The notes beneath the pieces are model-generated. The model saw only the letters and a list, made by a program, of their open reading frames with translations, was not told where the DNA came from and did no database searches. A stretch of DNA of 10,621 nucleotides, taken from NCBI GenBank assembly GCA_018302685.1, contig JAGVZK010000005.1, forward strand, positions 1-10,621, given 5' to 3'. Source of the DNA: Candidatus Woesearchaeota archaeon (lineage in GTDB: Archaea; Nanobdellota; Nanobdellia; SCGC-AAA011-G17; GW2011-AR20). The position numbers were made by a program, and so were the translations under genes. The number at the start of each line of letters is the position of its first letter. Position 1 is the first letter of the stretch. Positions 224 to 10,621 of the stretch are shown here, piece after piece.

Positions 224-928
224 TTAAAGCTGGGTTTCTATCACCTGCTGAAAGTTAGCGAATGGCTGTGCACCGCTGACAGGCACATTCCCAACAAGGA
301 AATAAGGAGTCCCTCTTCCGCCGGAAGCTGATGCGTCTTTCAAATCATTTTGTATTTCACTAGCATACTTCTGGCTGTCAAAGCATTCATTGAACTGTCC
401 GGTGTTTAATCCAAGATCAACTGCAAACTGTTTCAATAATGATTCGCTCAGAGATGCCTGATTCGTGAATATCATGTTGTGGTATTCCCAGAACATTCCC
501 TGCTCATCCGCGCACTCGGAAGCCAGCGCTGAAGGCATGGCCATGGGATGGAAGCTTAATGGAAAATCCCTGTACACAAACTTCACTTTTCCGGTGTCAA
601 TATACTGCTCCTTTATCTGCTGAAATGCATCCTCGTGAAACCTTCCGCAGTAGGGGCATTGAAAGTCCGAAAACTCAACTATTGTCAGCGGAGCATTCTT
701 ATCTCCTAAAAAGGGATCATCATCAGTGTATTCCTGAGCAGACACTTCAATGATTCCTTCGTTCCCTTGAGCTGTTGGTGCAGTATTTGCATCCGCTACA
801 GCCTCAGTGCTACTGTTTCCAAATCCTCCGGTTGATATTGAAATCACAAGCAGGACAACAAGAACACCGCTTATTATCTGCCACATCGTGGATTTTTTTA
901 TCGTGACTTTTTCCTCTTCTTTTGCCAT
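224..928 (-). CDS. DsbA-family thiol:disulfide oxidoreductase (thioredoxin fold), N-terminally membrane-anchored or secreted
   Basis: 234 aa. It has an N-terminal TM/signal anchor (MWQIISGVLVVLLVISIS) and the active-site box FSDFQCPYCGRFH (CPYC). DsbA/BdbD-like blocks include IVEFSDFQCPYC, VKFVYRDFPL and GTPYFLVG (cis-Pro loop). A strong SD (AAGGAGGT) lies upstream of the ATG at 928. Confidence 0.85.
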   Translation of the reverse strand: MAKEEEKVTIKKSTMWQIISGVLVVLLVISISTGGFGNSSTEAVADANTAPTAQGNEGIIEVSAQEYTDDDPFLGDKNAPLTIVEFSDFQCPYCGRFHEDAFQQIKEQYIDTGKVKFVYRDFPLSFHPMAMPSALASECADEQGMFWEYHNMIFTNQASLSESLLKQFAVDLGLNTGQFNECFDSQKYASEIQNDLKDASASGGRGTPYFLVGNVPVSGAQPFANFQQVIETQL

Positions 929-941
929 GTTATAACCTCCT

Positions 942-1370
942 TTATTTAACTATTAGCCTTCCAGCCATGCTGCTGTGGTCTTCCCCGCAGAATACATTGC
1001 AGTAAAATTCAAACTCCCCTTTCTTGTCCGCTATGAATTTCACATCAACGGTTTCTCCCGGATTTAGATATTCATTAACCCCAAATTCAGATATTGCAAT
1101 CCCATGGGCCACATCAACGCTTTCAACATGAAGGATTACTCTGTCGCCTTCATTCACAGTTATCACTGACGGCTCAAATTCCCACTGCCTTGCAATTATA
1201 TCAAATTCCTTTACACTAACCGGCTCATTGATGTCTTCCATTTCTTGCTTGGAAATGCTGTTTCCTGAAACCTGAGCTTCATAAGAAACGCCCTCAGTAT
1301 TGCCATCGGGAGACGAGCACCCTGTTGTAAGCACTGCCAGCAAAAAAATAACAATAAAGTAGCTTTTCAT
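942..1370 (-). CDS. Stand-alone CuA-type cupredoxin domain protein (CoxII-like soluble domain), probable lipoprotein or secreted
   Basis: 142 aa. The signal peptide has a lipobox-like LTTGC. The motif VAH-x34-C-NVF-C-GED-H-SS-M exactly matches the CuA consensus H-x34-C-x3-C-x3-H-x2-M. SD is GAGGTGAT. No oxidase subunit I is present in the window. Confidence 0.8.
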   Translation of the reverse strand: MKSYFIVIFLLAVLTTGCSSPDGNTEGVSYEAQVSGNSISKQEMEDINEPVSVKEFDIIARQWEFEPSVITVNEGDRVILHVESVDVAHGIAISEFGVNEYLNPGETVDVKFIADKKGEFEFYCNVFCGEDHSSMAGRLIVK

Positions 1371-1379
1371 CCTATCACC

Positions 1380-1472
1380 TCAGCAGCATTCGCAGCCAGC
1401 TCCGCATGAGCAGTCTGACTTCATTTCAGCTTTTCTCTTCCTCTCATCTTTTTCTTTCATCTTGTCCTCCAT
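1380..1472 (-). CDS. Unannotated Cys-rich micro-protein (26-32 aa), a putative metallothionein-like metal-binding peptide
   Basis: My own translation of the minus strand gives MEDKMKEKDERKRKAEMKSDCSCGAGCECC*. The 5 Cys sit in the last 10 residues. An internal ATG at 1460 has a GGAGGA box 5 nt upstream and is the likeliest start (26 aa), and an in-frame ATG also exists at 1478. The ORF fills the copA-cupredoxin gap exactly, and its 3' end (TGAGGTGATAGG) supplies the SD of the next gene. Confidence 0.55.
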   Translation of the reverse strand: MEDKMKEKDERKRKAEMKSDCSCGAGCECC

Positions 1473-1493
1473 TAGCATTATAGAAATACAATT

Positions 1494-3491
1494 TTACTTA
1501 CCTTTGTTTGGTATATAAATTTTTCTAAAGTATTTGTTCAATGACCCCCTTAACAGATTTGCATTCGTGACAACAGTTATGCTTGACAGCGCCATTGCAA
1601 TTTCAGCTATTACAGGATGCAGTAATCCTGCCACAGCCAGCGGAATTGCGACCGTATTGTATGCAAAGGCCCAGAATAGATTCTGCTTTATTTTCTTGAA
1701 TGTCAATTTTGACAGATAGATTGACTCAACAACTCCCATCAAAGATCCTTTTGCAAGTACTATGTCGCCGGCCTCTATTGCGATATCAGTTCCTGTGCCC
1801 ATTGCAATCCCCACATTTGACTGCTTCAATGCAGGAGCGTCATTGATTCCATCACCTACAAAAGCAACCATCCCCTCTTTCTGGAGCTTCATAACAATTT
1901 TCGCCTTGTCTTCGGGAAGGACGTTTGCAACAAAGTCCTTTATTCCAACTTCTCCTGAGATTGCGCGGGCGGTCCTTTCATTGTCTCCTGTAATCATCAC
2001 AGTCTTATATCCATCTTTGTTAAGTCTTTCAACCGCATTTTTGGAGTCGTCCTTGACAGCATCAGCGACCGCGATAAACCCTATCACTTTTCCGTTCTCC
2101 GAGATTATCATCAGCGTTTTCCCCTGATCCTCAAATTTCTCTATGGTTTCTGAGTGGCTCTTTATGCTGATATTCCTTTCGTTCATGAGGGTTCTGTTGC
2201 CTATGACTATGTATTTTTTGCCGATATATCCCTCTACGCCTCTTCCTCTCAGAACTTTGAAATTTTTGACATTTTTGTATTTTTTCATGTTAATGTTTTC
2301 AACTATCGCCTTTGCGATTGGATGTCCGCTAAGCCTTTCAAGGCTTGCAGCAGTTTCCAAGAGATATTCTTTTTTGACATTTTCAGGATGAATATCAGTC
2401 AGTTGGGGCTTTCCTTTTGTGATTGTTCCTGTTTTGTCAAATACGACTGTTTTGACTTCCTTCATTGTCTGTATCGCCTCACCCTTTCTTATTAAAATTC
2501 CATTTTTGGCGCCCATCCCCGAGCCTGCCATCAGCGCTATCGGTGTAGCCAGCCCCAAAGCACATGGGCATGCAATTACCAAAACAGAAATTCCAATGCT
2601 TAATGCCCTGCTTAAATCCTGGCTGAACATCCACCAGTTGAAGAAAACAATGATTGTCAGCATGAGGATTATGGGAACAAAAATTCCCGTAATCTTGTCT
2701 GCTAATTTCTGAATTGGAATTTTTGTCCCCTGGGCTTCCTCAACCAATTTTACTATGTGTGCCAGGAATGTATCTTTTCCTATTTTTACAGCCCTTACAT
2801 ATAAAATCCCATCCTGATTTATTGTGGCTCCGATCACGTTATCCCCTTTCATTTTTTCAGAGGGAATGCTCTCTCCAGTGATCATGCTCTCATCAACAGA
2901 GCTTTCGCCTTTTGTTACAATGCCGTCTGTTGGGATTTTTTCCCCAGGCTTTATCACCATGATATCGCCTATCTTTATTTCAGAAACAGGAATTTTAGTT
3001 TCCTCGTCGTCTTTCAGTACTACCGCGCTCTTTGCCCCTAGCTCAAGCAATTTTTTTATCTCTGAGCTCGCTTTCCCCTTTGCTTTTGCCTCTACATATT
3101 TCCCTGTTATGAATATAGCCATTATCATCGAGGAAATTCCGGAATAATTCTGGGCAATATCGAAAAAACTCAGGAATCCAGTCAGGTATGCAACAATGGT
3201 TCCTAAAGAGATAAGAGAGTCCATGCTGAAGTAAAGGCTATAAAAACCCCTCAGCCCTCCTCTTATAGTTTCAAAACCGAATATAAATATTACCGGAAAT
3301 CCAAGAGCCAGAAGGATTATGTTCATTGACTGCTTAGGGGCAAGATCTATTCCAAGCAGTGCTCCTGAATACATGAATAAAACAATTGGAATCGTGAACA
3401 GCCACGCTCCGACAAGCCTCTTCTTCCAACCCCTTATTTCTTTTTCTTCTAGGGATAATTCACTGTGATCATGTCCGGAATGATTATGCAT
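1494..3491 (-). CDS. copA: Cu(I)/Ag(I)-exporting P1B-1-type ATPase
   Basis: 665 aa. P-type motifs are TGES, DKTGT, MITGDN and GDGINDAP. The P1B-1 metal-site signature is complete: CPC in TM6 ([11 protein letters not shown]), YN-x4-P (YNTVAIP) and M-x2-SS-x5-N ([11 protein letters not shown]). The N-terminus is His-rich ([11 protein letters not shown]) and there is no fused HMA domain. The start overlaps the copZ stop (ATGCATAA). Confidence 0.95.
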
Positions 3492-3702
3492 TTTCTATCG
3501 ATGCCACCTTGTAACCTGCTCTTGAAACTGCTTTTTTAAGATCATCATTGGTTACACTGTCTTCAGCTTCAACGTATCCTTTTCTCATGACGAGGTTGAC
3601 ATTTGCATCCTTGACTCCGGAAACTTTTTTCAGGCTCCTTTCTATGTTGGATGCGCACGATGCACAGTGCATTCCTTCAATCATTAATTTTATTTTTTTC
3701 AT
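3484..3702 (-). CDS. copZ: HMA-domain copper chaperone
   Basis: 72 aa. It has [15 protein letters not shown] (the GMxCxxC metal-binding loop) and a length typical of a ferredoxin-like fold. It is translationally coupled to copA by an 8-nt overlap. Confidence 0.9.
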
Positions 3703-3711
3703 ATTTCCCCC

Positions 3712-3834
3712 CTATTTCTTATTCGGTTTCTGAATTTGTTTTGCCAGGTAGAATATTAACAGCACAAGCGCTATGACCACTAATATCCACATTACAAATC
3801 CAAAAAACCACATCCCATTGTAGTAATTAATCAT
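3712..3834 (-). CDS. Unannotated 40-aa single-TM micro-protein
   Basis: My own translation gives MINYYNGMWFFGFVMWILVVIALVLLIFYLAKQIQKPNKK*. A GGGGGCTGAGAAT box precedes the ATG at 3834. The ORF fills the gap between the cupredoxin-like gene and copZ. It has a clean aromatic/hydrophobic helix and a basic tail. Confidence 0.5.
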   Translation of the reverse strand: MINYYNGMWFFGFVMWILVVIALVLLIFYLAKQIQKPNKK

Positions 3835-3855
3835 ATTCTCAGCCCCCAATAATTT

Positions 3856-4230
3856 TTATTCAACTATTATTGTCCCAGTCCCCATCCCCATTGCGCACGC
3901 AAATCTGAATGTTCCTTTCTTGTCGGGGACAAATTCAACGTAATCCTCAGGCGTTCTTAAATTCTTTGAGACTCCAAAGTCTCTTATCGTAAATGACCTA
4001 TAGCACCCTGTAATGCTGCTGTCCAGCCTTATTCTGACAGGAATTCCTTTTTTTACAGTGATTGTATTTGGATAATAATTGTAATTCCTCATACTCAGTG
4101 TTATTTCCTGTATGATATCATCCTCTTTTGCCCCATCAGGATTTCCTTTTCCATTTCCATTCACAAACACAAACGCTCCGACCGATATAATAATGGCCAC
4201 TATTATCAGCAATATTGTTGTATTTTTCAT
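3856..4230 (-). CDS. Membrane-anchored cupredoxin-like protein with a Cys/Met-substituted metal site, paralog of 942..1370
   Basis: 124 aa with an N-terminal TM. It shares the DKKG-x-F-x-F-x-C block with the CuA cupredoxin (PDKKGTFRFAC versus ADKKGEFEFYC). The ligand pattern is C-x35-C-x-M-x-M (ITGCY…FACAMGMGTG) instead of H…CxxxCxxxHxxM. It has an ATGA-type overlap with the upstream gene. Confidence 0.65.
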   Translation of the reverse strand: MKNTTILLIIVAIIISVGAFVFVNGNGKGNPDGAKEDDIIQEITLSMRNYNYYPNTITVKKGIPVRIRLDSSITGCYRSFTIRDFGVSKNLRTPEDYVEFVPDKKGTFRFACAMGMGTGTIIVE

Positions 4231-4910
4231 CAGAATATTCCCCCTCTTGGTCCAAAGACAATCATCAGCGATGTCAATGAGGTTAATATCAAGCTTGCAA
4301 ATAAAGTGAACACATAGTCCTCCTTTACCATCCTCTCGCTTTCTTTTGTTTCTTTGTAGATCATGTAGTTCAATCCAATTAATATGACGCCTGATATTAT
4401 AAATACAATTACGGACGCTTCTTTCAGATGGTCATTTACCATCATAACAGAGCTCATTGCCCCCATTATTCCCCCCATGAAGCCAGCAGTTATCCCCTCC
4501 ATGAATCCCATAATCCCACAGCAAAGGCCATTGTAAATCCCGAATGTTATTCCAACAATCATCCCAAAAACACTTCCCCAGAACATGCCATTTGCAGCAC
4601 CAATGTAAAATCCCGCTAAAAATCCAGAGATCATTCCAACTGTCATTCCTATCATCATTCCAGACATGCATGCAAATTCCCTGTATGCTCTTACTTGCCT
4701 TATTGATGGCAGCAATATTGCATAGCTCAAAACAGAAAGAAATATCAGCAATCCATATCTAGGCATAAACTCCTCTATATACCGGAATTTTACAAAATAA
4801 AGAAGAGCCAGTAGTCCGAATGATATTAATAAAGAGTAGAGTATAGTTCTTATCAGTTCACCCTCAACCCTATTTCCATTCAACTCCCTTGCAAATAATT
4901 TCAAGCTCAT
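4230..4910 (-). CDS. Polytopic membrane protein with Gly/Met-rich (glycine-zipper-like) helices, unknown function
   Basis: 226 aa with about 6 hydrophobic segments. The central region is MSGMMIGMTVGMISGFLAGFYIGAANGMFWGSVFGMIVGITFGIYNGLCCGIMGFMEGITAGFMGGIMGAMSSVMM, with repeated GxxxG/M spacing and one CC pair. I recognise no family. Confidence 0.6.
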   Translation of the reverse strand: MSLKLFARELNGNRVEGELIRTILYSLLISFGLLALLYFVKFRYIEEFMPRYGLLIFLSVLSYAILLPSIRQVRAYREFACMSGMMIGMTVGMISGFLAGFYIGAANGMFWGSVFGMIVGITFGIYNGLCCGIMGFMEGITAGFMGGIMGAMSSVMMVNDHLKEASVIVFIISGVILIGLNYMIYKETKESERMVKEDYVFTLFASLILTSLTSLMIVFGPRGGIF

Positions 4911-4917
4911 ATTTTAC

Positions 4918-5214
4918 CTACCCCTTTATTCTATTGTAAATCATTGCAAATAAATATCCTGCGATAAGGGATAATGCAATTATTTCAATTAATCCTAAAA
5001 TCGTGTCTATAAATGGTAAAGACTCTTCTGCTATCCTGCTTATATCTATCCCATGAAATAAAAACCCAAATGCCTTCACCATCCCTGCTGGAAAGATCGC
5101 AATTAAGATAGCGCAGAGAATATATATGACCCCAAATGTTCCTGCCAAACTGAAGGCAAATTTTTTTTCATTTAACTTATTCCCCACTTTTGTCATCCCC
5201 CTTATTTTTACCAT
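4918..5214 (-). CDS. Small two-TM membrane protein that resembles the DUF5676 family
   Basis: 98 aa or less. Alternative starts are ATG 5196 and GTG 5187, which has GGGGGA 8 nt upstream. It has two TM helices, and the C-terminal …GYLFAMIYNRIKG resembles the …WLYN end I recall for DUF5676. The family call is from memory only. Confidence 0.55.
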   Translation of the reverse strand: MVKIRGMTKVGNKLNEKKFAFSLAGTFGVIYILCAILIAIFPAGMVKAFGFLFHGIDISRIAEESLPFIDTILGLIEIIALSLIAGYLFAMIYNRIKG

Positions 5215-5392
5215 GACCTCGAAAGTGATGCTTCATCACTATAATATGCAAAACAATCATTAATATAACTATCGCCATGATTGTAAATTTGCTGGAAATG
5301 CCTAAAAATGATATTGCCGATACTAGAACAAATGGAATTAAGCACGCCAAAGTCATCATTATTATGTGAACATGCTCTTTTTTATGCGGCAT
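5177..5392 (-). CDS. Small His-rich two-TM membrane protein
   Basis: 71 aa with MPHKKEHVH at the N-terminus and MKHHFRGHGKNKGDD at the C-terminus. HIIMMTLACLIPFVL resembles the H-x-MM-x-(C/A)C-x-x-P small proteins often found near heavy-metal ATPases. AAGGGGGA lies 9 nt upstream. It overlaps both neighbours. Confidence 0.55.
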   Translation of the reverse strand: MPHKKEHVHIIMMTLACLIPFVLVSAISFLGISSKFTIMAIVILMIVLHIIVMKHHFRGHGKNKGDDKSGE

Positions 5393-5909
5393 CTTGATTA
5401 ATCCCCCTTGGTTTGCATAAACTATTGATTGACATTCCAGTAAGGTAGATTGAAATAAGCAATATTAAAATTCCAAAAAGCTGAAGCTCAACCCCTTTAA
5501 ATGGAAAATACATGAGAGTAAATGGAAGTCCTATCAACCCAAACAAAAATGCTCCGCAGGTAGGGCATCCAACCCCAAATGCACTGATCCCGGATCCAAT
5601 AAATCCAAGAAACCCTTTCCCAGTAATTTTATTATGCAATCTAAATTTAAATAAGATCATAGAGAGCAATATTCCAGATAATGCAGAGGTAGCCAAGATG
5701 GAAGCCACACTAAAGGTTATAAAAGTAGGCCCGGACATCATTATGGATGTCCATAAACTATTATGCGCAACTTTGGCAACTAAAAAATAATATAATACTG
5801 CAAATATCAATATGCCTGAGACTAAACTGATTATTTTGTATCTTCTCCCGGTTAGAGCCAGGCCAATGCCTATGTTAAATTCCCTGAGATTTTCCTTTAT
5901 TGCAGTCAT
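5382..5909 (-). CDS. Polytopic membrane protein with an intramembrane CPTC motif, unknown family
   Basis: 175 aa with 4-5 TM segments. The pair sits in a Gly-rich helix start (GSGISAFGVGCPTCGAFLFGLIGLP). Its architecture loosely parallels the 145-aa protein at 6121..6558. Confidence 0.6.
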   Translation of the reverse strand: MTAIKENLREFNIGIGLALTGRRYKIISLVSGILIFAVLYYFLVAKVAHNSLWTSIMMSGPTFITFSVASILATSALSGILLSMILFKFRLHNKITGKGFLGFIGSGISAFGVGCPTCGAFLFGLIGLPFTLMYFPFKGVELQLFGILILLISIYLTGMSINSLCKPRGINQDAA

Positions 5910-5918
5910 TTTATTAAA

Positions 5919-6128
5919 TTATTCCAAGCATTCTTTGTAAATATTGGGATGATGACTCATATGCTCTCTCCATGATTCTTCAGTGTATCCTGACTCTGGT
6001 GAGCATTTGTCTTCCAAACCTTTTCCAGAGTCTTTCCATGCCTGAATTATTCCAGGAAAGAATGTTAAAAGCAAAAGCCCTACTATCAGCAGGCAGGCAA
6101 TGACATACAAAATTATTCTTTTATCCAT
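5919..6128 (-). CDS. Small TM-anchored protein with a Cys/His/Met tail
   Basis: 69 aa with an N-terminal TM (IILYVIACLLIVGLLLLTFF). The tail is …EDKCSPESGYTEESWREHMSHHPNIYKECLE, with two Cys flanking an HMSHH box. AGGAGGA lies 7 nt upstream. There is an 8-nt overlap with the upstream gene. Confidence 0.6.
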   Translation of the reverse strand: MDKRIILYVIACLLIVGLLLLTFFPGIIQAWKDSGKGLEDKCSPESGYTEESWREHMSHHPNIYKECLE

Positions 6129-6558
6129 TTTTCATTCCTCCTTTCATTTTTCTTTTATGCCTTAGCATGATCATTATTCCAATTATGTTGGACAATATTC
6201 CTACTCCTAAAAACCAGGGCTGATATCTTGCCAGAAAAGTCGCCAGTACAGAAGCCCCTGCAAGAGGAATTATTTGAAGCAAAAAATGAGAGCAACAAGC
6301 AATCATGCTCCCTCCAGATATTGCACTCGTCCCAGCAACAGTTCCTGTAAGCTGTGCGGTATGTTTAATCGAAAAATATAATCCTATTTGTATTCCAAAT
6401 CCTGCGGCAAGGGGAAAAATCAGGTACCATAGGCCCCTCAGATTGAGAAGAGCAAATTCAATACCCCTAAAAATGCTTACAACGCCGAGGTAAAAAACAA
6501 GCAACCCAACCCCTGCCATCAATCCATACAGTGTTGCATTGCTTCTATTATTCTTCAT
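6121..6558 (-). CDS. Four-TM membrane protein with an intramembrane vicinal Cys pair (ACCSH), MerT-like in logic only
   Basis: 145 aa. GGSMIACCSHFLLQIIPLAG places CC-x-H at the start of a helix followed by Pro, as in CC-x-x-P metal-uptake helices. Homology was not established. Confidence 0.6.
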   Translation of the reverse strand: MKNNRSNATLYGLMAGVGLLVFYLGVVSIFRGIEFALLNLRGLWYLIFPLAAGFGIQIGLYFSIKHTAQLTGTVAGTSAISGGSMIACCSHFLLQIIPLAGASVLATFLARYQPWFLGVGILSNIIGIMIMLRHKRKMKGGMKNG

Positions 6559-6560
6559 TT

Positions 6561-7034
6561 TTATTCATTGCAACATTCAAGCAGTTTTTTGATGGAGGAG
6601 AAAATTCCTTTTTTCTCGCTGCCTTTTATTTCTACATTTTTTGAGGAGGAATTTAATTCCCAGAACAATCCATACAGTTCAGCGGAATCATGGTACATCC
6701 CCTTTGCCTCTTCTTCCTTTCCTTCATGAAATAATCTGTTAGCTGTCTCGTACAACCTCATGCTCGAGGCAAGAAAATGCTTGCTCATGCACCATTTCTC
6801 GCTTTCATCGTCTTTTTTTACAATTAGCAACATTAGATTTTTTCTCAACTCCCTGACTACGTCCAAAATTCTAAGAAATTTCTCATCTTTGGTTTTTGCA
6901 TAGCTGAAAAAGCAGTGCTCTTCAAGGCTTACAAGGTTCATAAGGCCAATGCTAAGATCTTCCCATACAGAAATATCTAATCCATTCTTTTTCTTTATTT
7001 CATCTATTTTTTTTATGAAGTTTTCCGATTTCAT
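6561..7034 (-). CDS. Soluble, probably cytoplasmic alpha-helical protein of unknown function ending in CC
   Basis: 157 aa with no hydrophobic segment. It is charged and helical, with EEHCFF, EKWCMSKH and C-terminal LLECCNE. Apart from CopZ and the Cys-rich micro-proteins at 1380..1472 and 8212..8322, it is the only clearly soluble non-secreted product in the operon. Confidence 0.6.
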   Translation of the reverse strand: MKSENFIKKIDEIKKKNGLDISVWEDLSIGLMNLVSLEEHCFFSYAKTKDEKFLRILDVVRELRKNLMLLIVKKDDESEKWCMSKHFLASSMRLYETANRLFHEGKEEEAKGMYHDSAELYGLFWELNSSSKNVEIKGSEKKGIFSSIKKLLECCNE

Positions 7035-7035
7035 T

Positions 7036-7554
7036 TTAAATAAACTGTATTATTAATGATGCAGCTATTAAAATCAAAAATGTTAATATAATCCCTTGAA
7101 ACGGTATTCTTATGGTTGTTTTTTCCTTTATTTTCCTGTTTAGCAAGGGTGGAATAAAAACTATCAAGCCTCCAAGAAAACTGCTTAGCAATGATAAATC
7201 AATTACATATGTCTTGTTGAGCAAAGTTCCATAACCCCCTGTTAAATTAACACCAAATCCAGCTACACTGGAAAAAATTGGCAGTAAAGGAATTATTGTT
7301 GCTAGGAAAACAATTGTTATTATCAAGGTTTTCTGAAATGGAATATATCTCTTCTTCACAATTTTTGCAAACCACATTCCCATTGACATTGCAAAGGCGC
7401 CAATTAACAGCCCTATAACGATCCTGCTTACTCCAAGATAAACCCCTCCGGCTGCAGCAACTCCGGCGGTTACTGTGCATAATGGGCAGTGGGCATCAGC
7501 ATATCTGGAGAAAGCAAGCGATGCAATGAAAAATAAAGAAATTAATTTTTTCAT
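7036..7554 (-). CDS. Polytopic membrane protein with an HCPLC motif at the predicted mature N-terminus
   Basis: 172 aa. The signal-like N-terminus MKKLISLFFIASLAFSRYADA is followed immediately by HCPLCT and then 4-5 TM helices. It has an ATGA overlap with the DUF411 gene. Confidence 0.6.
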   Translation of the reverse strand: MKKLISLFFIASLAFSRYADAHCPLCTVTAGVAAAGGVYLGVSRIVIGLLIGAFAMSMGMWFAKIVKKRYIPFQKTLIITIVFLATIIPLLPIFSSVAGFGVNLTGGYGTLLNKTYVIDLSLLSSFLGGLIVFIPPLLNRKIKEKTTIRIPFQGIILTFLILIAASLIIQFI

Positions 7555-8033
7555 ATTCTCATGAATTCATCATAGCTTCCATCATTGTTAACCTGATAAA
7601 CAATAAAGTCGCTTTTTTTTGTTCCAGGCATCCCAGGGCTCCCTGAAGGCATTCCAGGCATTGCAATCCCCTTTATGTCAGGCTTTTCCATCATTAATCT
7701 CTCTACAGCCTCCAATGGGATATGGCCCTCAATAAAATAATCTCCTATGATTGTTGTATGGCAACTTTCCAGTTCCAGAGGAATTTCGTATTCCTGTTTT
7801 ATTGAATCAATGCTCTCCATGCTGATTATTTCAGTTTCGGAATTTCCCTTACTCCTAAAATAGCTTGAATAGACTCCGCAGCATCCGCAGCTCCCTGATT
7901 TGTAAAGTTTTATTTCTCCCTGAAAATTCCTGACATTTTCAAAACTGCTTGCCTTGTCTGCATTAATGGCAAAAATTCCTATGACAACAGTCGATAAGAT
8001 TATTACGGCCCATATCATTGATTTTTTCTTCAT
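7551..8033 (-). CDS. copG: DUF411 / CopG-family copper-binding protein, membrane-anchored or secreted
   Basis: 160 aa with an N-terminal TM. The diagnostic DUF411 blocks are CGCCGVY, SCHTTIIGDYFIEGHIPLEAVERL and KGIAMPGMPSGSPGM. Confidence 0.85.
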   Translation of the reverse strand: MKKKSMIWAVIILSTVVIGIFAINADKASSFENVRNFQGEIKLYKSGSCGCCGVYSSYFRSKGNSETEIISMESIDSIKQEYEIPLELESCHTTIIGDYFIEGHIPLEAVERLMMEKPDIKGIAMPGMPSGSPGMPGTKKSDFIVYQVNNDGSYDEFMRI

Positions 8034-8210
8034 TTAGCACCCTCCAACCATTCCACCATATGATACTGCACTTTGCGCCGCAGAGCCCGCTGCCTGCACT
8101 GTTTCAACACCTACTCCGGCTTTAAAGCTCAGGAATAATGCGGCAATAAAAAGCACTCCAATAGCTATCCATAGCGTAGTTTTTCTGTTCATAATGTTTA
8201 TATTATTCAT
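8034..8210 (-). CDS. Unannotated 58-aa TM-anchored protein ending in -GGMVGGC, paralog of 8324..8566
   Basis: My own translation gives MNNINIMNRKTTLWIAIGVLFIAALFLSFKAGVGVETVQAAGSAAQSAVSYGGMVGGC*. AAGGAGGT lies 5 nt upstream of ATG 8210, and an alternative ATG is at 8192. The TAA stop abuts the copG ATG. It aligns with the 80-aa protein at the TM segment, the AGVxG box and the tail. Confidence 0.65.
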   Translation of the reverse strand: MNNINIMNRKTTLWIAIGVLFIAALFLSFKAGVGVETVQAAGSAAQSAVSYGGMVGGC

Positions 8211-8211
8211 T

Positions 8212-8322
8212 TTATACCTCCTTGATTTTCTTATTGGACTTTTTTCTCACAAATCGAAATAAACTCTTGTTTTCGAGATCCTTACAACATTCTTCCTCAT
8301 CTTTCGTTTTGCAACAATTCAT
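8212..8322 (-). CDS. 36-aa Cys-pair micro-protein (CC-x8-CC) with a basic tail
   Basis: MNCCKTKDEEECCKDLENKSLFRFVRKKSNKKIKEV*. The supplied 64-aa ORF (8212..8406) overlaps the 80-aa gene. The internal ATG at 8322 lies 1 nt after that gene's stop with GGAGGG upstream. The same TAAAATGAAT junction recurs at the next gene boundary. Confidence 0.5.
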   Translation of the reverse strand: MNCCKTKDEEECCKDLENKSLFRFVRKKSNKKIKEV

Positions 8323-8323
8323 T

Positions 8324-8566
8324 TTAACACCCTCCCACCATTCCATTGGAACTGCTTCGAGCTGCTCCGCTGCCGGCCTTAGCTGGAATTGTTCCATGCA
8401 TTTCATAGTTCATTATTTCATTTTCTGTCCAGCCGGAAGTGTCTATTTTATCTTCGTTGGGCAATTGTGCAACCACATTTCCGGTTACACCTGCCTGAAA
8501 TACAAAAAATGAAACAACTAAAAATAGCATTCCAATAATGCTCCATAAAATTGTTCGTTCTTCCAT
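8324..8566 (-). CDS. 80-aa TM-anchored protein ending in -NGMVGGC
   Basis: MEERTILWSIIGMLFLVVSFFVFQAGVTGN…AKAGSGAARSSSNGMVGGC*. Its ATG abuts the TAG of the upstream gene, with GGGGGG 7 nt upstream. It is a paralog of the 58-aa protein with a ~25-aa insert (…DTSGWTENEIMNYEMHGTIP). Confidence 0.7.
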   Translation of the reverse strand: MEERTILWSIIGMLFLVVSFFVFQAGVTGNVVAQLPNEDKIDTSGWTENEIMNYEMHGTIPAKAGSGAARSSSNGMVGGC

Positions 8567-9235
8567 CTAACAGCCCCCCACCATTTGTCCGTCAGAAGTT
8601 TGTCCTTGTTCAATGCCCCTGTAAAGGTTAGAAGCTAAGTTGATGTAATTTGTGAAATCAACACCATTTGCTTTAAGTATATCCGCCTTCTGCTCATGTA
8701 TTCCAGGGAAGAACAGAACTTTCCATTTCCCTAATTCGGACAGTATTTCTTCATTAGACATTTCCGGATGATTTATCAGCAGATACTTTGCAACACCCCT
8801 CATTGCATAACTATGTGCGCATCCGCACGCCCTCTCTCCGTTTGAGAAAATTATCGCCTTTGCACCGCAGCAGTATTCACACGATATTGAGCTGCCAATC
8901 CCAATGTATCTTGCCATTTGTTCCTGATTCAGATCCATATCTTCATATTGTGATAATTTCCTTATTGTAGCATCTGCAAGTCCGGGATTACCCGCAGAAA
9001 TATCATCGTACCTTACCCCTATTTCTACCCCATAAACTGCCGGCATTCCTTTAGGGATTATCTCTGATGCAGAAACAATCCCAACACCAGTAGCGATTCC
9101 ATTTTCAGAATAAATTCTTCCAACATTGAACACGATTACCAGTGCCAAAATAGCCATTATACCTAGCTGCACATAAAATTCCGTGTTTTCATTTTTTGCC
9201 TTGCTTGAGTTTTTCATGATAATCTTCCAGAACAA
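8567..9235 (-). CDS. First operon gene: TM-anchored extracytoplasmic Cys-rich domain protein ending in -DGQMVGGC
   Basis: 222 aa, or 216 aa from ATG 9217. It has an N-terminal TM (LGIMAILALVIVFNV). The Cys cluster is SCEYCCGAKAIIFSNGERACGCAHSYAMRG (C-x2-CC … C-x-C-x-H), reminiscent of PCYCGC-type motif proteins by memory only. The C-terminus is QMVGGC*. Confidence 0.7.
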   Translation of the reverse strand: MFWKIIMKNSSKAKNENTEFYVQLGIMAILALVIVFNVGRIYSENGIATGVGIVSASEIIPKGMPAVYGVEIGVRYDDISAGNPGLADATIRKLSQYEDMDLNQEQMARYIGIGSSISCEYCCGAKAIIFSNGERACGCAHSYAMRGVAKYLLINHPEMSNEEILSELGKWKVLFFPGIHEQKADILKANGVDFTNYINLASNLYRGIEQGQTSDGQMVGGC

Positions 9236-9307
9236 GAATTATATAACTCCTTTTGTGAAACTAGTTTCAACAGCAAGATTTTTAAAGATCATATTAAAAA
9301 AAGATGT
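9236..9307. promoter_or_regulatory. Divergent promoter/operator region containing a perfect 14-bp palindrome TGAAACTAGTTTCA (9256..9269)
   Basis: This is the only sizeable non-coding gap flanking the operon. The A/T-rich TATA-like box TTTTTAAAGA / TTTAAAAATC (about 9279..9288) reads on both strands. It lies ~25 nt upstream of the regulator ATG at 9308, consistent with a leaderless archaeal-type mRNA. The palindrome sits between that box and the operon start. Confidence 0.45.
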
Positions 9308-9796
9308 ATGGAAAATAAATACGTTGGATACTTATTAATGGGGATTTCTATACTGGTTATAGTTATCATATTATTGTTTAACTCCACACTGAAAGAAATT
9401 GTGAAAGAGAGCTGTGGGGAAGCTCACGGTTTAACATGCCCAATGAATGAAACTGTGAATGAACAGACATACCTTGCATTGGGGGTTGTTGGCCTACTGA
9501 TAATAGTGAGCCTTGTTTTGATATTCTCAAAGCCCCAGAAAGAAATTATTTTCAAGACAAGAACAATAGAGAAAAAAGCCAAAAAGAAAAAGATTGATAC
9601 AAGCGGATTAAAGCCAGAAGAAAAGATGGTTTTGGAGATTATCCAAAAGGATAAGGCGGTTTTTCAGGCTGACCTAATAGAGAAGACGGAGTTTGGGAAG
9701 GCAAAGATGACAAGAATAATTGACAGGCTTGAGGGAAAGGAATTCGTTGAAAGGAAGAGAAGAGGATTGACAAATGTTGTTGTTATGAAGGATTAA
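9308..9796 (+). CDS. Membrane-tethered winged-helix (MarR/TrmB-like) transcriptional regulator with a Cys/His/Met extracytoplasmic loop
   Basis: 162 aa. TM1 is YLLMGISILVIVIILLF, the loop is …KESCGEAHGLTCPMNE… and TM2 is LALGVVGLLIIVSLVLIF. After a Lys-rich linker comes a C-terminal wHTH: EEKMVLEIIQKDKAVFQADLIEKTEFGKAKMTRIIDRLEGKEFVERKRRGLTNVVVMK. It is divergent from the operon. Confidence 0.7.
   Translation: MENKYVGYLLMGISILVIVIILLFNSTLKEIVKESCGEAHGLTCPMNETVNEQTYLALGVVGLLIIVSLVLIFSKPQKEIIFKTRTIEKKAKKKKIDTSGLKPEEKMVLEIIQKDKAVFQADLIEKTEFGKAKMTRIIDRLEGKEFVERKRRGLTNVVVMKD

Positions 9797-10381: not shown

Positions 10382-10621
<240 letters not shown>

Follow-up and report, generated by a model that had tools for sequence, protein, structure and literature searches.

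The subject of this analysis is a 10,621-nucleotide (nt) stretch of a Candidatus Woesearchaeota (DPANN archaea) contig, JAGVZK010000005.1, referred to below as the window. Its source is a very small, symbiotic archaeon. The window carries a dense run of small, mostly unnamed membrane and exported proteins joined to genes for copper handling. This block looks like a real, conserved, co-regulated and uncharacterized system and not a chance cluster. We place it with metal-resistance and thiol-relay systems; its protein families are without described relatives. What the block does is a matter for more cautious wording. The reading we favour, tentatively and a little short of even confidence, is that it may be a copper-regulated envelope module of DPANN archaea, in which an outer Cu(I) relay would be combined with thiol upkeep by the family of one of its membrane proteins, g10.

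A closely packed operon rich in cysteine and methionine

All genes in question lie on the minus strand, where 20 consecutive open reading frames (ORFs) follow one another from 9217 to 224, the spacing between neighbours being -38 to +15 nt (Table 1). An earlier note on this DNA had described one co-directional unit of about 20 genes, and this description is confirmed: the 20 ORFs are packed behind a single conserved promoter/operator. The same note put about 15 uncharacterized genes into positions 4230-9235. We count 13 there, named g01-g13, and the start of g01 is most likely the ATG at 9217 (216 amino acids, aa) and not the TTG at 9235. That most of these genes are unrecognizable is right for 11 of the 13, for which no Pfam or NCBIfam family is found; besides g05 (DUF411/CopG), which the note had recognized, g12 has a family as well (DUF5676). 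The motifs listed in the note are all present on the minus strand where it placed them, with one correction, namely that g03 carries CC-x7-CC and not CC-x8-CC. Recognizable products follow downstream of g01-g13, namely cupredoxin (g14), CopZ (g16), P1B-1 CopA (g17), CuA-type cupredoxin (g19) and DsbA-like protein (g20).

Unknown families make up more than half of the operon. Exact-sequence look-ups of ten window products gave nine that are NCBI 'hypothetical proteins' (locus tags J4425_003xx), and a search of the literature on DUF5676, on MVGGC, and on DPANN together with copper and DUF411 returned no description of the block. Cys and Met account for 2.1% and 4.85% of the residues in the 13 proteins, compared to 1.0% and 2.6% in 88 flanking ORFs of related loci, and motifs of the CC, CxC or CxxC kind occur in 12 of the 20 operon proteins versus 19 of the same 88 ORFs. 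The core families are conserved at 40-80% identity, and most motifs stay unchanged in homologues of 40-70% identity, among them metal-type ligands (Met ladders, His and vicinal CC tags). This does not apply to the strain-specific g11 or to g02 and g03, both variable.

Pfam and NCBIfam scans covered all 21 window products, and the Pfam scan was extended to 46 homologues, which added a single match, the rhodanese domain that two loci have fused to g06. Topologies were derived from hydropathy, the positive-inside rule and fusion architectures. AlphaFold2 (AF2) models of g01 and g10 are both of moderate confidence. Comparison of the block's own families by hhalign found relatedness only for g10 and its paralogues g10p and g10q; the transmembrane (TM) anchors of g01, g04 and g09 resemble one another.

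A common operator and a membrane-anchored regulator

Next to g01 lies a divergent gene, gR. In the 90 nt between the two start codons, a perfect 14-bp palindrome, TGAAACTAGTTTCA, is found between two divergent TATA boxes, each ~25 nt from its own start codon, a spacing that implies leaderless mRNAs. The palindrome is unique in the window at two or fewer mismatches (0.06 occurrences expected by chance). If one mismatch is allowed, most relatives have it ~51 nt upstream of g01, and ten of them show the same succession of palindrome, ~9 nt, TTAtATAA, ~24 nt and ATG. At this same distance (~51 nt) it also precedes units that start separately in relatives: g13-cupredoxin units (g13 carries its own operator copy in seven relatives), g06, and a fusion of HMA, DsbD_2 and cupredoxin domains. 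Since one operator stands upstream of both the unknown and the copper genes, these genes make up one regulon across lineages. In the window there is a single operator and there are no usable intergenic gaps, and hence the 20 genes are most simply read as a single predicted transcript.

The product of gR exceeds the Pfam cut-offs for both MarR (28.7 bits; cut-off 24.6) and DUF7343 (31.4 bits; cut-off 27.6), and a conserved palindrome lies at its own divergent promoter, as befits a regulator of the MarR type. It has two TM helices, an outward loop (C36-x3-H-x3-C44-P-M) and then a cytoplasmic winged helix-turn-helix domain. Both Cys residues of the loop are conserved across 14 homologues, and gR is divergent to g01 in most related loci.

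Gene order is conserved, and the block is modular and apparently mobile

Related loci were taken as the neighbourhoods of g10 homologues at 39-66% identity, in public contigs and GTDB species genomes, with phmmer used for mapping (L and P numbers below designate loci and homologous proteins). Almost all homologues of g10, g01 and g08 are proteins without a name, from Pace-, Woese- and Nanoarchaeota. Across these three groups the core order is conserved; the succession in 14 of 16 distinct loci is the divergent MarR gene, g01, g04 (with or without g02), CopG, g06, g07, g08, g09 and g10. What follows this core is one of several variants: g13, cupredoxin (sometimes with a g10 paralogue), g15, CopZ and CopA; or elsewhere ArsR, DUF302 and an HMA-ATPase; or multicopper oxidases (L009). 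The g14 cupredoxin follows g13 in all seven loci aligned, and the pairing recurs in metagenome loci with enough contig. The block is thus modular, with a core of g01, g04, g05 and g06-g10, to which g13-g14, a separate co-regulated unit, is fused here. Variable or strain-specific components are g02, g03, g11 and g12.

Two replacements in the cupredoxin slot are informative. In L023 (10917-12359), a 480-aa HMA-DsbD_2-cupredoxin fusion with the ending GGGTCGMGGGCGCGG and the operator 51 nt upstream sits where other loci have g13-g14. In L026 (14400-15890), within a rearranged copy of the block, a polytopic Fer4_5 domain (4Fe-4S, NapH/CcoG-like) carries a C-terminal cupredoxin. These replacements argue that the cupredoxin needs a membrane conduit to the cytoplasm. 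The distant archaeal locus L029 combines a g10~g01 fusion with CopG and with a TM protein whose end reads LPGMVGGC, with no copA within 8 kb, and this set looks like an ancient minimal module. The small protein g04 is present in the 13 related loci aligned with it and is met again in L029, as the tail protein of this set.

Contigs of the same strain differ in the flanks of the block and carry IS200/IS605 Y1 transposase genes (L001:366-806, L002:12686-12991). In L009 (1-4422), its neighbours are genes of conjugative type IV secretion (TraC-like, TrbL, TrbC and a TraG-like P-loop protein). Because transposases flank copies of the block and conjugation genes adjoin it in L009, its setting suggests a mobile accessory resistance island.

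The g10 superfamily pairs with different exported partners

In the polytopic protein g10, TM3 is broken at an invariant GCPTCGA, and TM4 is followed, on the cytoplasmic side, by Cys165, which is likewise invariant. Its homologues form 86 clusters, and a full search by hidden Markov model (HMM) extends these to a superfamily of 1336 representatives at 50% identity. Of the 114 superfamily representatives long enough to test, 110 have a CxxC and, ~50 residues farther on, another Cys. Two paralogue groups are distinguished by their motifs, g10p (APGCAACG) and g10q (VCPLC). For g10 we obtained no Pfam or NCBIfam family and no PDB profile match, and Foldseek of the AF2 model against the PDB gave a best E of 0.86, with no DsbB or VKOR among the 50 matches listed. 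Neither g10 nor g08 nor g13 matches Pfam DsbD_TM or DsbD_2 at E up to 0.1, and hhalign of the three against the DsbD_2 protein of L023 gave probabilities of at most 1.4%.

Natural fusions indicate which parts cooperate. A g10-like part is joined through a TM helix to a g01-like ectodomain with the ending PGMVGGC in P0263, P0364 and P0285, and to a variant ectodomain (YRPCC-x-NSTAF-x-DCNHG ... FWFP) with the ending GGCGV in P0294, P0328 and P0360. Of these last three, at least one comes from a bacterium of the candidate phyla radiation (CPR), where its gene has ribosomal protein genes around it. In P0281, encoded beside msrB, a g10p-like part is fused to DsbA. The neighbourhoods of P0263 and P0299 lie on short contigs and are uninformative. 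In CPR bacteria, L028 (3474-4985) encodes a 503-aa g10~variant-g01 fusion between L7/L12 and tRNA synthetase genes, with no copper genes nearby; the translation of this locus differs from the query protein, perhaps owing to an alternative genetic code or another gene call. In L025 (2105-2563; Falkowbacteria) the gene of an anchored rhodanese has a g10 homologue on one side and a CopA-like ATPase on the other.

A metagenome scan with g10p yielded 80 loci (L033-L112), 75 of them with enough flank to be tested. A DsbA-like gene lies within 400 nt of g10p in 59 of these 75 and usually abuts it; where it follows g10p, stop and start codons usually overlap (e.g. L077:4001-5331, L056:2775-4065). A second membrane MarR paralogue often precedes this module. 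In the metagenome loci, g10q repeatedly follows the g14 cupredoxin. From these pairings and fusions it follows that each g10 subfamily is tied to a single exported partner that contains Cys. The g10 family is not copper-specific: paralogues pair with DsbA, and CPR fusions occur in housekeeping contexts. A broader idea, to our minds possible but leaning towards the unlikely, is that the superfamily might be an unrecognized class of transmembrane thiol relay, with the g01 ectodomain and 'swinging' Gly-Gly-Cys tails, that replaces DsbD/CcdA or DsbB/VKOR in CPR and DPANN organisms and serves DsbA, CopG and cupredoxins.

Two outcomes that the earlier note had named as speaking against its proposal can be looked for in silico, namely that the unknown genes belong to well-known unrelated families or that their order is conserved nowhere. 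Neither was found: the genes stay outside known families in Pfam, NCBIfam and PDB profile searches and in Foldseek searches with two models (g01 and g10; no match better than E 0.86), and the core order recurs as given above. The note's proposal of a dedicated copper/thiol system holds in that the block is conserved and tied together by fusions and a common operator. It has to be loosened in that the block is modular and the g10 family has uses beyond copper.

Components of the block

Table 1. Coordinates of the genes and promoter elements in the window.
Feature	Position	Strand	Description	Basis
gR	9308..9796	+	membrane-anchored MarR/DUF7343 winged-helix regulator	Pfam
TATA-like box	9280..9287	+	TTTTAAAG, putative gR promoter	read from sequence
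Palindrome	9256..9269	.	perfect 14-bp palindrome TGAAACTAGTTTCA, putative gR operator	between two divergent TATA boxes
TATA box	9239..9246	-	TTATATAA, operon promoter	read from sequence, ~25 nt upstream of ATG 9217
g01	8567..9217	-	N-terminal TM anchor and all-helical ectodomain	AF2, predicted local distance difference test (pLDDT) 74.8
g02	8324..8566	-	80-aa TM-anchored protein, MVGGC end, variable component	
g03	8212..8322	-	unannotated 36-aa ORF, MNCCKTKDEEECC..., CC-x7-CC	
g04	8034..8210	-	58-aa protein of 'tail-only' build, in which a short linker joins the TM anchor to an invariant C-terminal MVGGC	
g05	7551..8033	-	TM-anchored CopG (DUF411), CGCC motif	Pfam, PDB 6WIS
g06	7036..7554	-	cleavable signal peptide, mature HCPLCT N-terminus outside, 4 TM helices	
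g07	6561..7034	-	soluble cytoplasmic helical protein, LLECCNE end	
g08	6121..6558	-	4-TM protein, SM-x-x-CCSH in mid-TM3 (ACCSH in window)	
g09	5919..6128	-	TM anchor and small ectodomain, C-x13-HM-x-HHP-x6-C	
g10	5382..5909	-	4-TM protein, N-in/C-in	AF2, pLDDT 75.2
g11	5177..5392	-	71-aa 2-TM protein, His-rich ends, strain-specific	
g12	4918..5214	-	DUF5676 2-TM protein, variable component	Pfam 3.3e-20
g13	4230..4910	-	polytopic Gly/Met-rich membrane protein	
g14	3856..4230	-	TM-anchored cupredoxin	Pfam Cupredoxin_1 4.6e-13
g15	3712..3849	-	small TM protein	
g16	3484..3702	-	CopZ (HMA domain, MHCASC)	Pfam HMA 6.9e-17, NCBIfam CopZ models
g17	1494..3491	-	P1B-1 Cu(I) ATPase CopA, His-rich N-terminus	TIGR01511 8.6e-170
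g18	1380..1478	-	32-aa peptide, Lys/Glu-rich N-terminal part, CSCGAGCECC end	directly after copA
g19	942..1370	-	lipoprotein cupredoxin, CuA-type C-x3-C-x3-H-x2-M	Pfam Cupredoxin_1, COX2
g20	224..928	-	TM-anchored DsbA-like thioredoxin-fold protein (CPYC)	Pfam

Homologues of g01 form 1727 clusters. Its invariant elements are SCEYCCGA, ACGCAHS, ELGKWKVLFFP and the C-terminal tail MVGGC, and it has no Pfam or NCBIfam family and no PDB relative, either by sequence profile or by Foldseek of the AF2 model. Homologues of g02 were found in L015 and L024 only. The stop of g03 lies 1 nt ahead of the g04 start, in a different frame. A frameshift artefact splitting g03 from g04 was considered and rejected, g04 having its own strong ribosome-binding site (AGGAGGT). 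In relatives, a cytoplasmic 'MDCC' N-terminal tag is fused in frame to g04, g05 or g08, and g03 is a detached copy of this tag. A class III (pilin-type) signal peptide was also considered for g02, g04 and g09 and rejected, as no [KR][GA] cleavage motif is present.

Assignment of g05 to CopG is secure by profile (DUF411, PF04214: 2.7e-24, 85.1 bits versus a cut-off of 27) and by comparison with CopG of PDB 6WIS (8.5e-18, with the motif aligned); the CGCC is conserved in 14 sequences. The role proposed for CopG is the interconversion of Cu(I) and Cu(II), with Cu handed on to other proteins (PMC7558416). Next to it, g06 has an invariant A21-H22-C23-P24-L25-C26-T27, with the Ala at -1, and MSMGMW in its first TM helix. 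It has no Pfam match and no significant match in a PDB profile search. The rhodanese domain fused to it in two Nanoarchaeota loci (L024:6462-7331, L015:6185-7051) is extracellular and C-terminal. In the g07 slot, most relatives encode a 4-TM protein with FCVICAS in TM1; an (L/V)ECC end is common to both forms, and g07 has no Pfam family.

The SM-x-x-CCSH of g08 is invariant in the alignment of a family that comprises 352 homologue clusters, again with no Pfam match and no significant PDB profile match. Most relatives also have a cytoplasmic C-terminal Cys(His). Some g08 homologues of ~145 aa (P0433, P0438, P0458, P0465, P0466) bear the JGI label 'P-type Cu+ transporter' or 'Cu+-exporting ATPase', which is probably a mis-annotation, since BLAST of g08 against the operon's CopA gave an E of 0.45. 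The motif of g09 is conserved across 14 sequences. For g11 no confident homologue was found in related loci, and g12 occurs in few loci only.

In g13 we find CM-x-GMM-x-GMT-x-GMI and an invariant CCG, with no significant match in a PDB profile search. Its last two helices resemble the N-terminal TM hairpin of COX2 at E values of 0.5-4, which are not significant. The g13-cupredoxin pair loosely mimics a split COX2.

Farther downstream, relatives of g15 bear a Gly/Met-rich N-terminal part. The CopA assignment of g17 is clear (TIGR01511, 566 bits versus a cut-off of 397), and the CPC, YN and M-x-x-SS (MALSS) motifs are present. The short g18 is called as a gene in public assemblies. Although g19 is of the CuA type, it is not part of a terminal oxidase, because DPANN single-cell genomes lack oxygen reductases (PMC7507113). 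For g20, Pfam gives Thioredoxin_4 at 2.3e-34 and DSBA at 1e-21, and profile comparison with the PDB gives DsbA/BdbD at 1e-19 to 1e-22 and ScsC at 1e-9 to 1e-12. No ScsB homologue was found as its partner.

A possible Cu(I) relay with thiol upkeep

Two themes run through the block. Copper or soft-metal handling is the most economical one, given the copper partners, the metal-type ligands and a sensor with an outward Cys/His/Met loop. Thiol redox upkeep is the second, given the pairing and fusion with DsbA, the addition of rhodanese and thioredoxin-like parts, and the Cys that g10 has on its cytoplasmic side.

In the model that joins the two, gR would sense a soft metal via its outer loop and derepress the regulon. 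Outside the cell, Cu(I) would be caught on flexible thiols and thioethers, namely the membrane-tethered MVGGC tails of g01, g02 and g04, the HCPLC of g06 and the HM-x-HH of g09; it could come from CopA efflux or from Cu(II) reduced on exposed thiols. Ligand exchange would then bring it to CopG, at the CxCC cluster site, and to the cupredoxins, where it would be oxidized or released. Links between the outer sites and the cytoplasmic face may be provided by g08 (CCSH), g13 (Met ladder and CC) and the g07 slot (ECC tail). Members of the g10 family would serve as transmembrane thiol relays, holding the cysteines of exported partners reduced: g10 those of g01 and CopG, g10p those of DsbA-like proteins, and g10q those of the cupredoxin. 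Such a role would be analogous to that of DsbD/CcdA/ScsB, on an unrelated fold.

The likeness to DsbD/CcdA and to ScsB-ScsC is that an intramembrane-Cys protein serves an exported thioredoxin-fold partner, in a context of copper stress. However, DsbD superfamily proteins have 6-8 TM helices, whereas g10 has four, with its CxxC in one helix and a cytoplasm-side Cys. Only in L023 is the equivalent slot taken by a true DsbD_2 domain.

Several points weigh against the combined model. Every mechanistic step in it, direction and chemistry included, is one that we infer from sequence. No sequence or fold relation of g10 to DsbD/CcdA was detectable by profile, Foldseek or hhalign, and g10 has its CxxC within a single helix, where DsbD/CcdA have one essential Cys in each of the two TM helices of an inverted repeat. 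A cytoplasmic reductant, thioredoxin or other, is missing from every locus. The g10p paralogue, the one that pairs with DsbA, is absent from the window, and a C-terminal Cys retained in relatives has been lost from the window's g08. Vicinal CC tags and Met ladders are a better fit to transport of metal than to that of electrons, and redox upkeep could therefore be wrong even if the Cu relay is right. Finally, because the CPR fusions lie among ribosomal genes, the g10/g01 pair does not appear to be intrinsically a copper device.

Alternative explanations and known systems

In one alternative, Cu(I), or Ag(I) or Hg(II), would itself be carried across the membrane by thiolate ligand exchange, as in mercury resistance (Mer) systems. 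Starting at the outer tails, CopG and g06, the metal would move over the Cys pairs that g10, g08, g13 and membrane-type g07 have inside the membrane and arrive at the cytoplasmic CC tags and CopZ, or it would take the opposite way. This would serve for uptake followed by sequestration or controlled re-export by CopA, or for an ATPase-independent supply of Cu to cupredoxins and multicopper oxidases. The logic of MerT/MerC/MerF, in which a TM Cys pair and a cytoplasmic Cys or Cys pair work with a soluble HMA partner, is matched by g10, g08, membrane g07 and CopZ, as a resemblance only. Soft-metal ligand exchange and flexible Cys pick-up arms likewise recall MerP and the C-terminal CC tail of MerA. 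The Met ladders and His ligands of g06, g13, g08 and g09 would fit as well, as would the HMA-DsbD_2-cupredoxin fusion of L023 with its Gly/Cys tail under the common operator, the constant nearness of CopZ, and a g10 homologue near a P1B ATPase in a CPR bacterium. Yet no protein matches a Mer family (for g06-g13, in Pfam and NCBIfam), no MerA or other cytoplasmic sink and no MerR is found in any locus, and here the tails are single-Cys MVGGC ends on the outer face, in a copper context. Cu(I) import looks futile within an operon that also exports Cu(I), and it is left unexplained why g10 paralogues should be tightly paired with, or fused to, DsbA, which is a redox and not a metal protein. We regard this route as unlikely, though with a probability worth keeping in mind. 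The DsbA partnership speaks for another explanation, in which the block would perform quinone-independent oxidative folding or cuproprotein maturation: the g10 family would be analogues of DsbB/VKOR/MauE that re-oxidize DsbA-like partners, g01 would be a Cys-rich, possibly metal-containing electron sink, and the block would fold or metallate exported proteins without any part in detoxification. The g10p-DsbA pair and the P0281 fusion mimic DsbB-DsbA and VKOR-DsbA, g10 is a four-helix bundle in its AF2 model, the CPR fusion has a housekeeping context, and DPANN and CPR organisms are without oxygen reductases (PMC7507113). MauE has been established as a new replacement of DsbB, and gaps in the known DsbB/VKOR/MauE pathways are acknowledged, with further pathways said to await discovery (10.64898/2026.03.05.709764). 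But DsbB and VKOR have two extracytoplasmic Cys pairs, and g10 has a single CxxC plus a cytoplasm-side Cys, without sequence or fold similarity to either; an electron acceptor is not obvious; the hosts, a further difference, have no respiratory chains; and the block is wired to a metal-type sensor, an operator common to CopZ/CopA units, and mobile accessory DNA. Oxidative folding as the block's purpose is accordingly improbable in our view.

Sulfur chemistry is suggested by the rhodaneses, fused to g06 in L015 and L024 and anchored between g10 and CopA in L025, and by a tail with a single invariant Cys, as in Tus/Dsr-type carriers. In a sulfane-sulfur (persulfide) relay, the MVGGC tails and rhodanese would pass sulfur to the surface, where copper would be precipitated or capped as Cu-S. 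As rhodanese is absent from the window and from most loci, and no sulfur-mobilizing enzyme (cysteine desulfurase, SQR) is encoded in any locus, we give this relay very little credence. Slighter still is the case for no functional system at all, with the small ORFs being unrelated hitch-hikers, mis-calls or precursors of a ribosomal-peptide chalkophore. The very short ORFs g03, g15 and g18 and the poor conservation of g02, g03, g11 and g12 would suit it; the invariant motifs, fixed order and fusions of the core families do not, and synteny and fusions largely refute it. A methanobactin-like chalkophore cluster, of the kind whose peptides are ribosomally synthesized and post-translationally modified, was rejected: no maturation enzyme domain (MbnB/C, YcaO, radical SAM, protease) is encoded in the operon or in any related locus.

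Set beside known copper systems, the block has familiar and unfamiliar parts. Bacterial CopG of cop/cus/cutFOG clusters and g05 are alike in the CxCC motif, in similarity to 6WIS and in a context of copper efflux and oxidation. Here, however, CopG is TM-anchored and set among the fixed unknown proteins g01, g04 and g06-g10, a set never described alongside bacterial CopG. Canonical CopA/CopZ/CsoR (or CopY/CueR) operons also combine CopZ with a P1B-1 CopA, which here fall in one predicted transcript with the block, but the regulator differs: it is of the MarR/DUF7343 kind, is anchored in the membrane with a Cys/His/Met loop facing outward, and has a palindromic operator of its own.

Implications

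The genomes of DPANN archaea and CPR bacteria measure ~1 Mb, and these organisms are without respiratory chains. Many of these small-genome organisms devote 9-20 genes, often on mobile DNA, to the block. If the Cu(I)-relay model is true, an extracytoplasmic layer of copper handling, composed of tethered tails, a His-CxxC N-terminus, CopG and thiol-lined membrane proteins, would be added to the CopA/CopZ paradigm. The block would also be a candidate answer to how the redox state of exported Cys residues is kept, and DsbA recycled, in organisms without known DsbB/VKOR/DsbD routes. Handles for work on it are the operator/regulator pair, the invariant motifs and the natural fusions.

Flanking genes

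Beyond gR, positions 10382-10606 of the minus strand encode a fragment of a trypsin/HtrA-like serine protease (GNSGGPL), cut by the window end. At the other end, longer contigs have a MutS-family gene beyond the DsbA-like gene.

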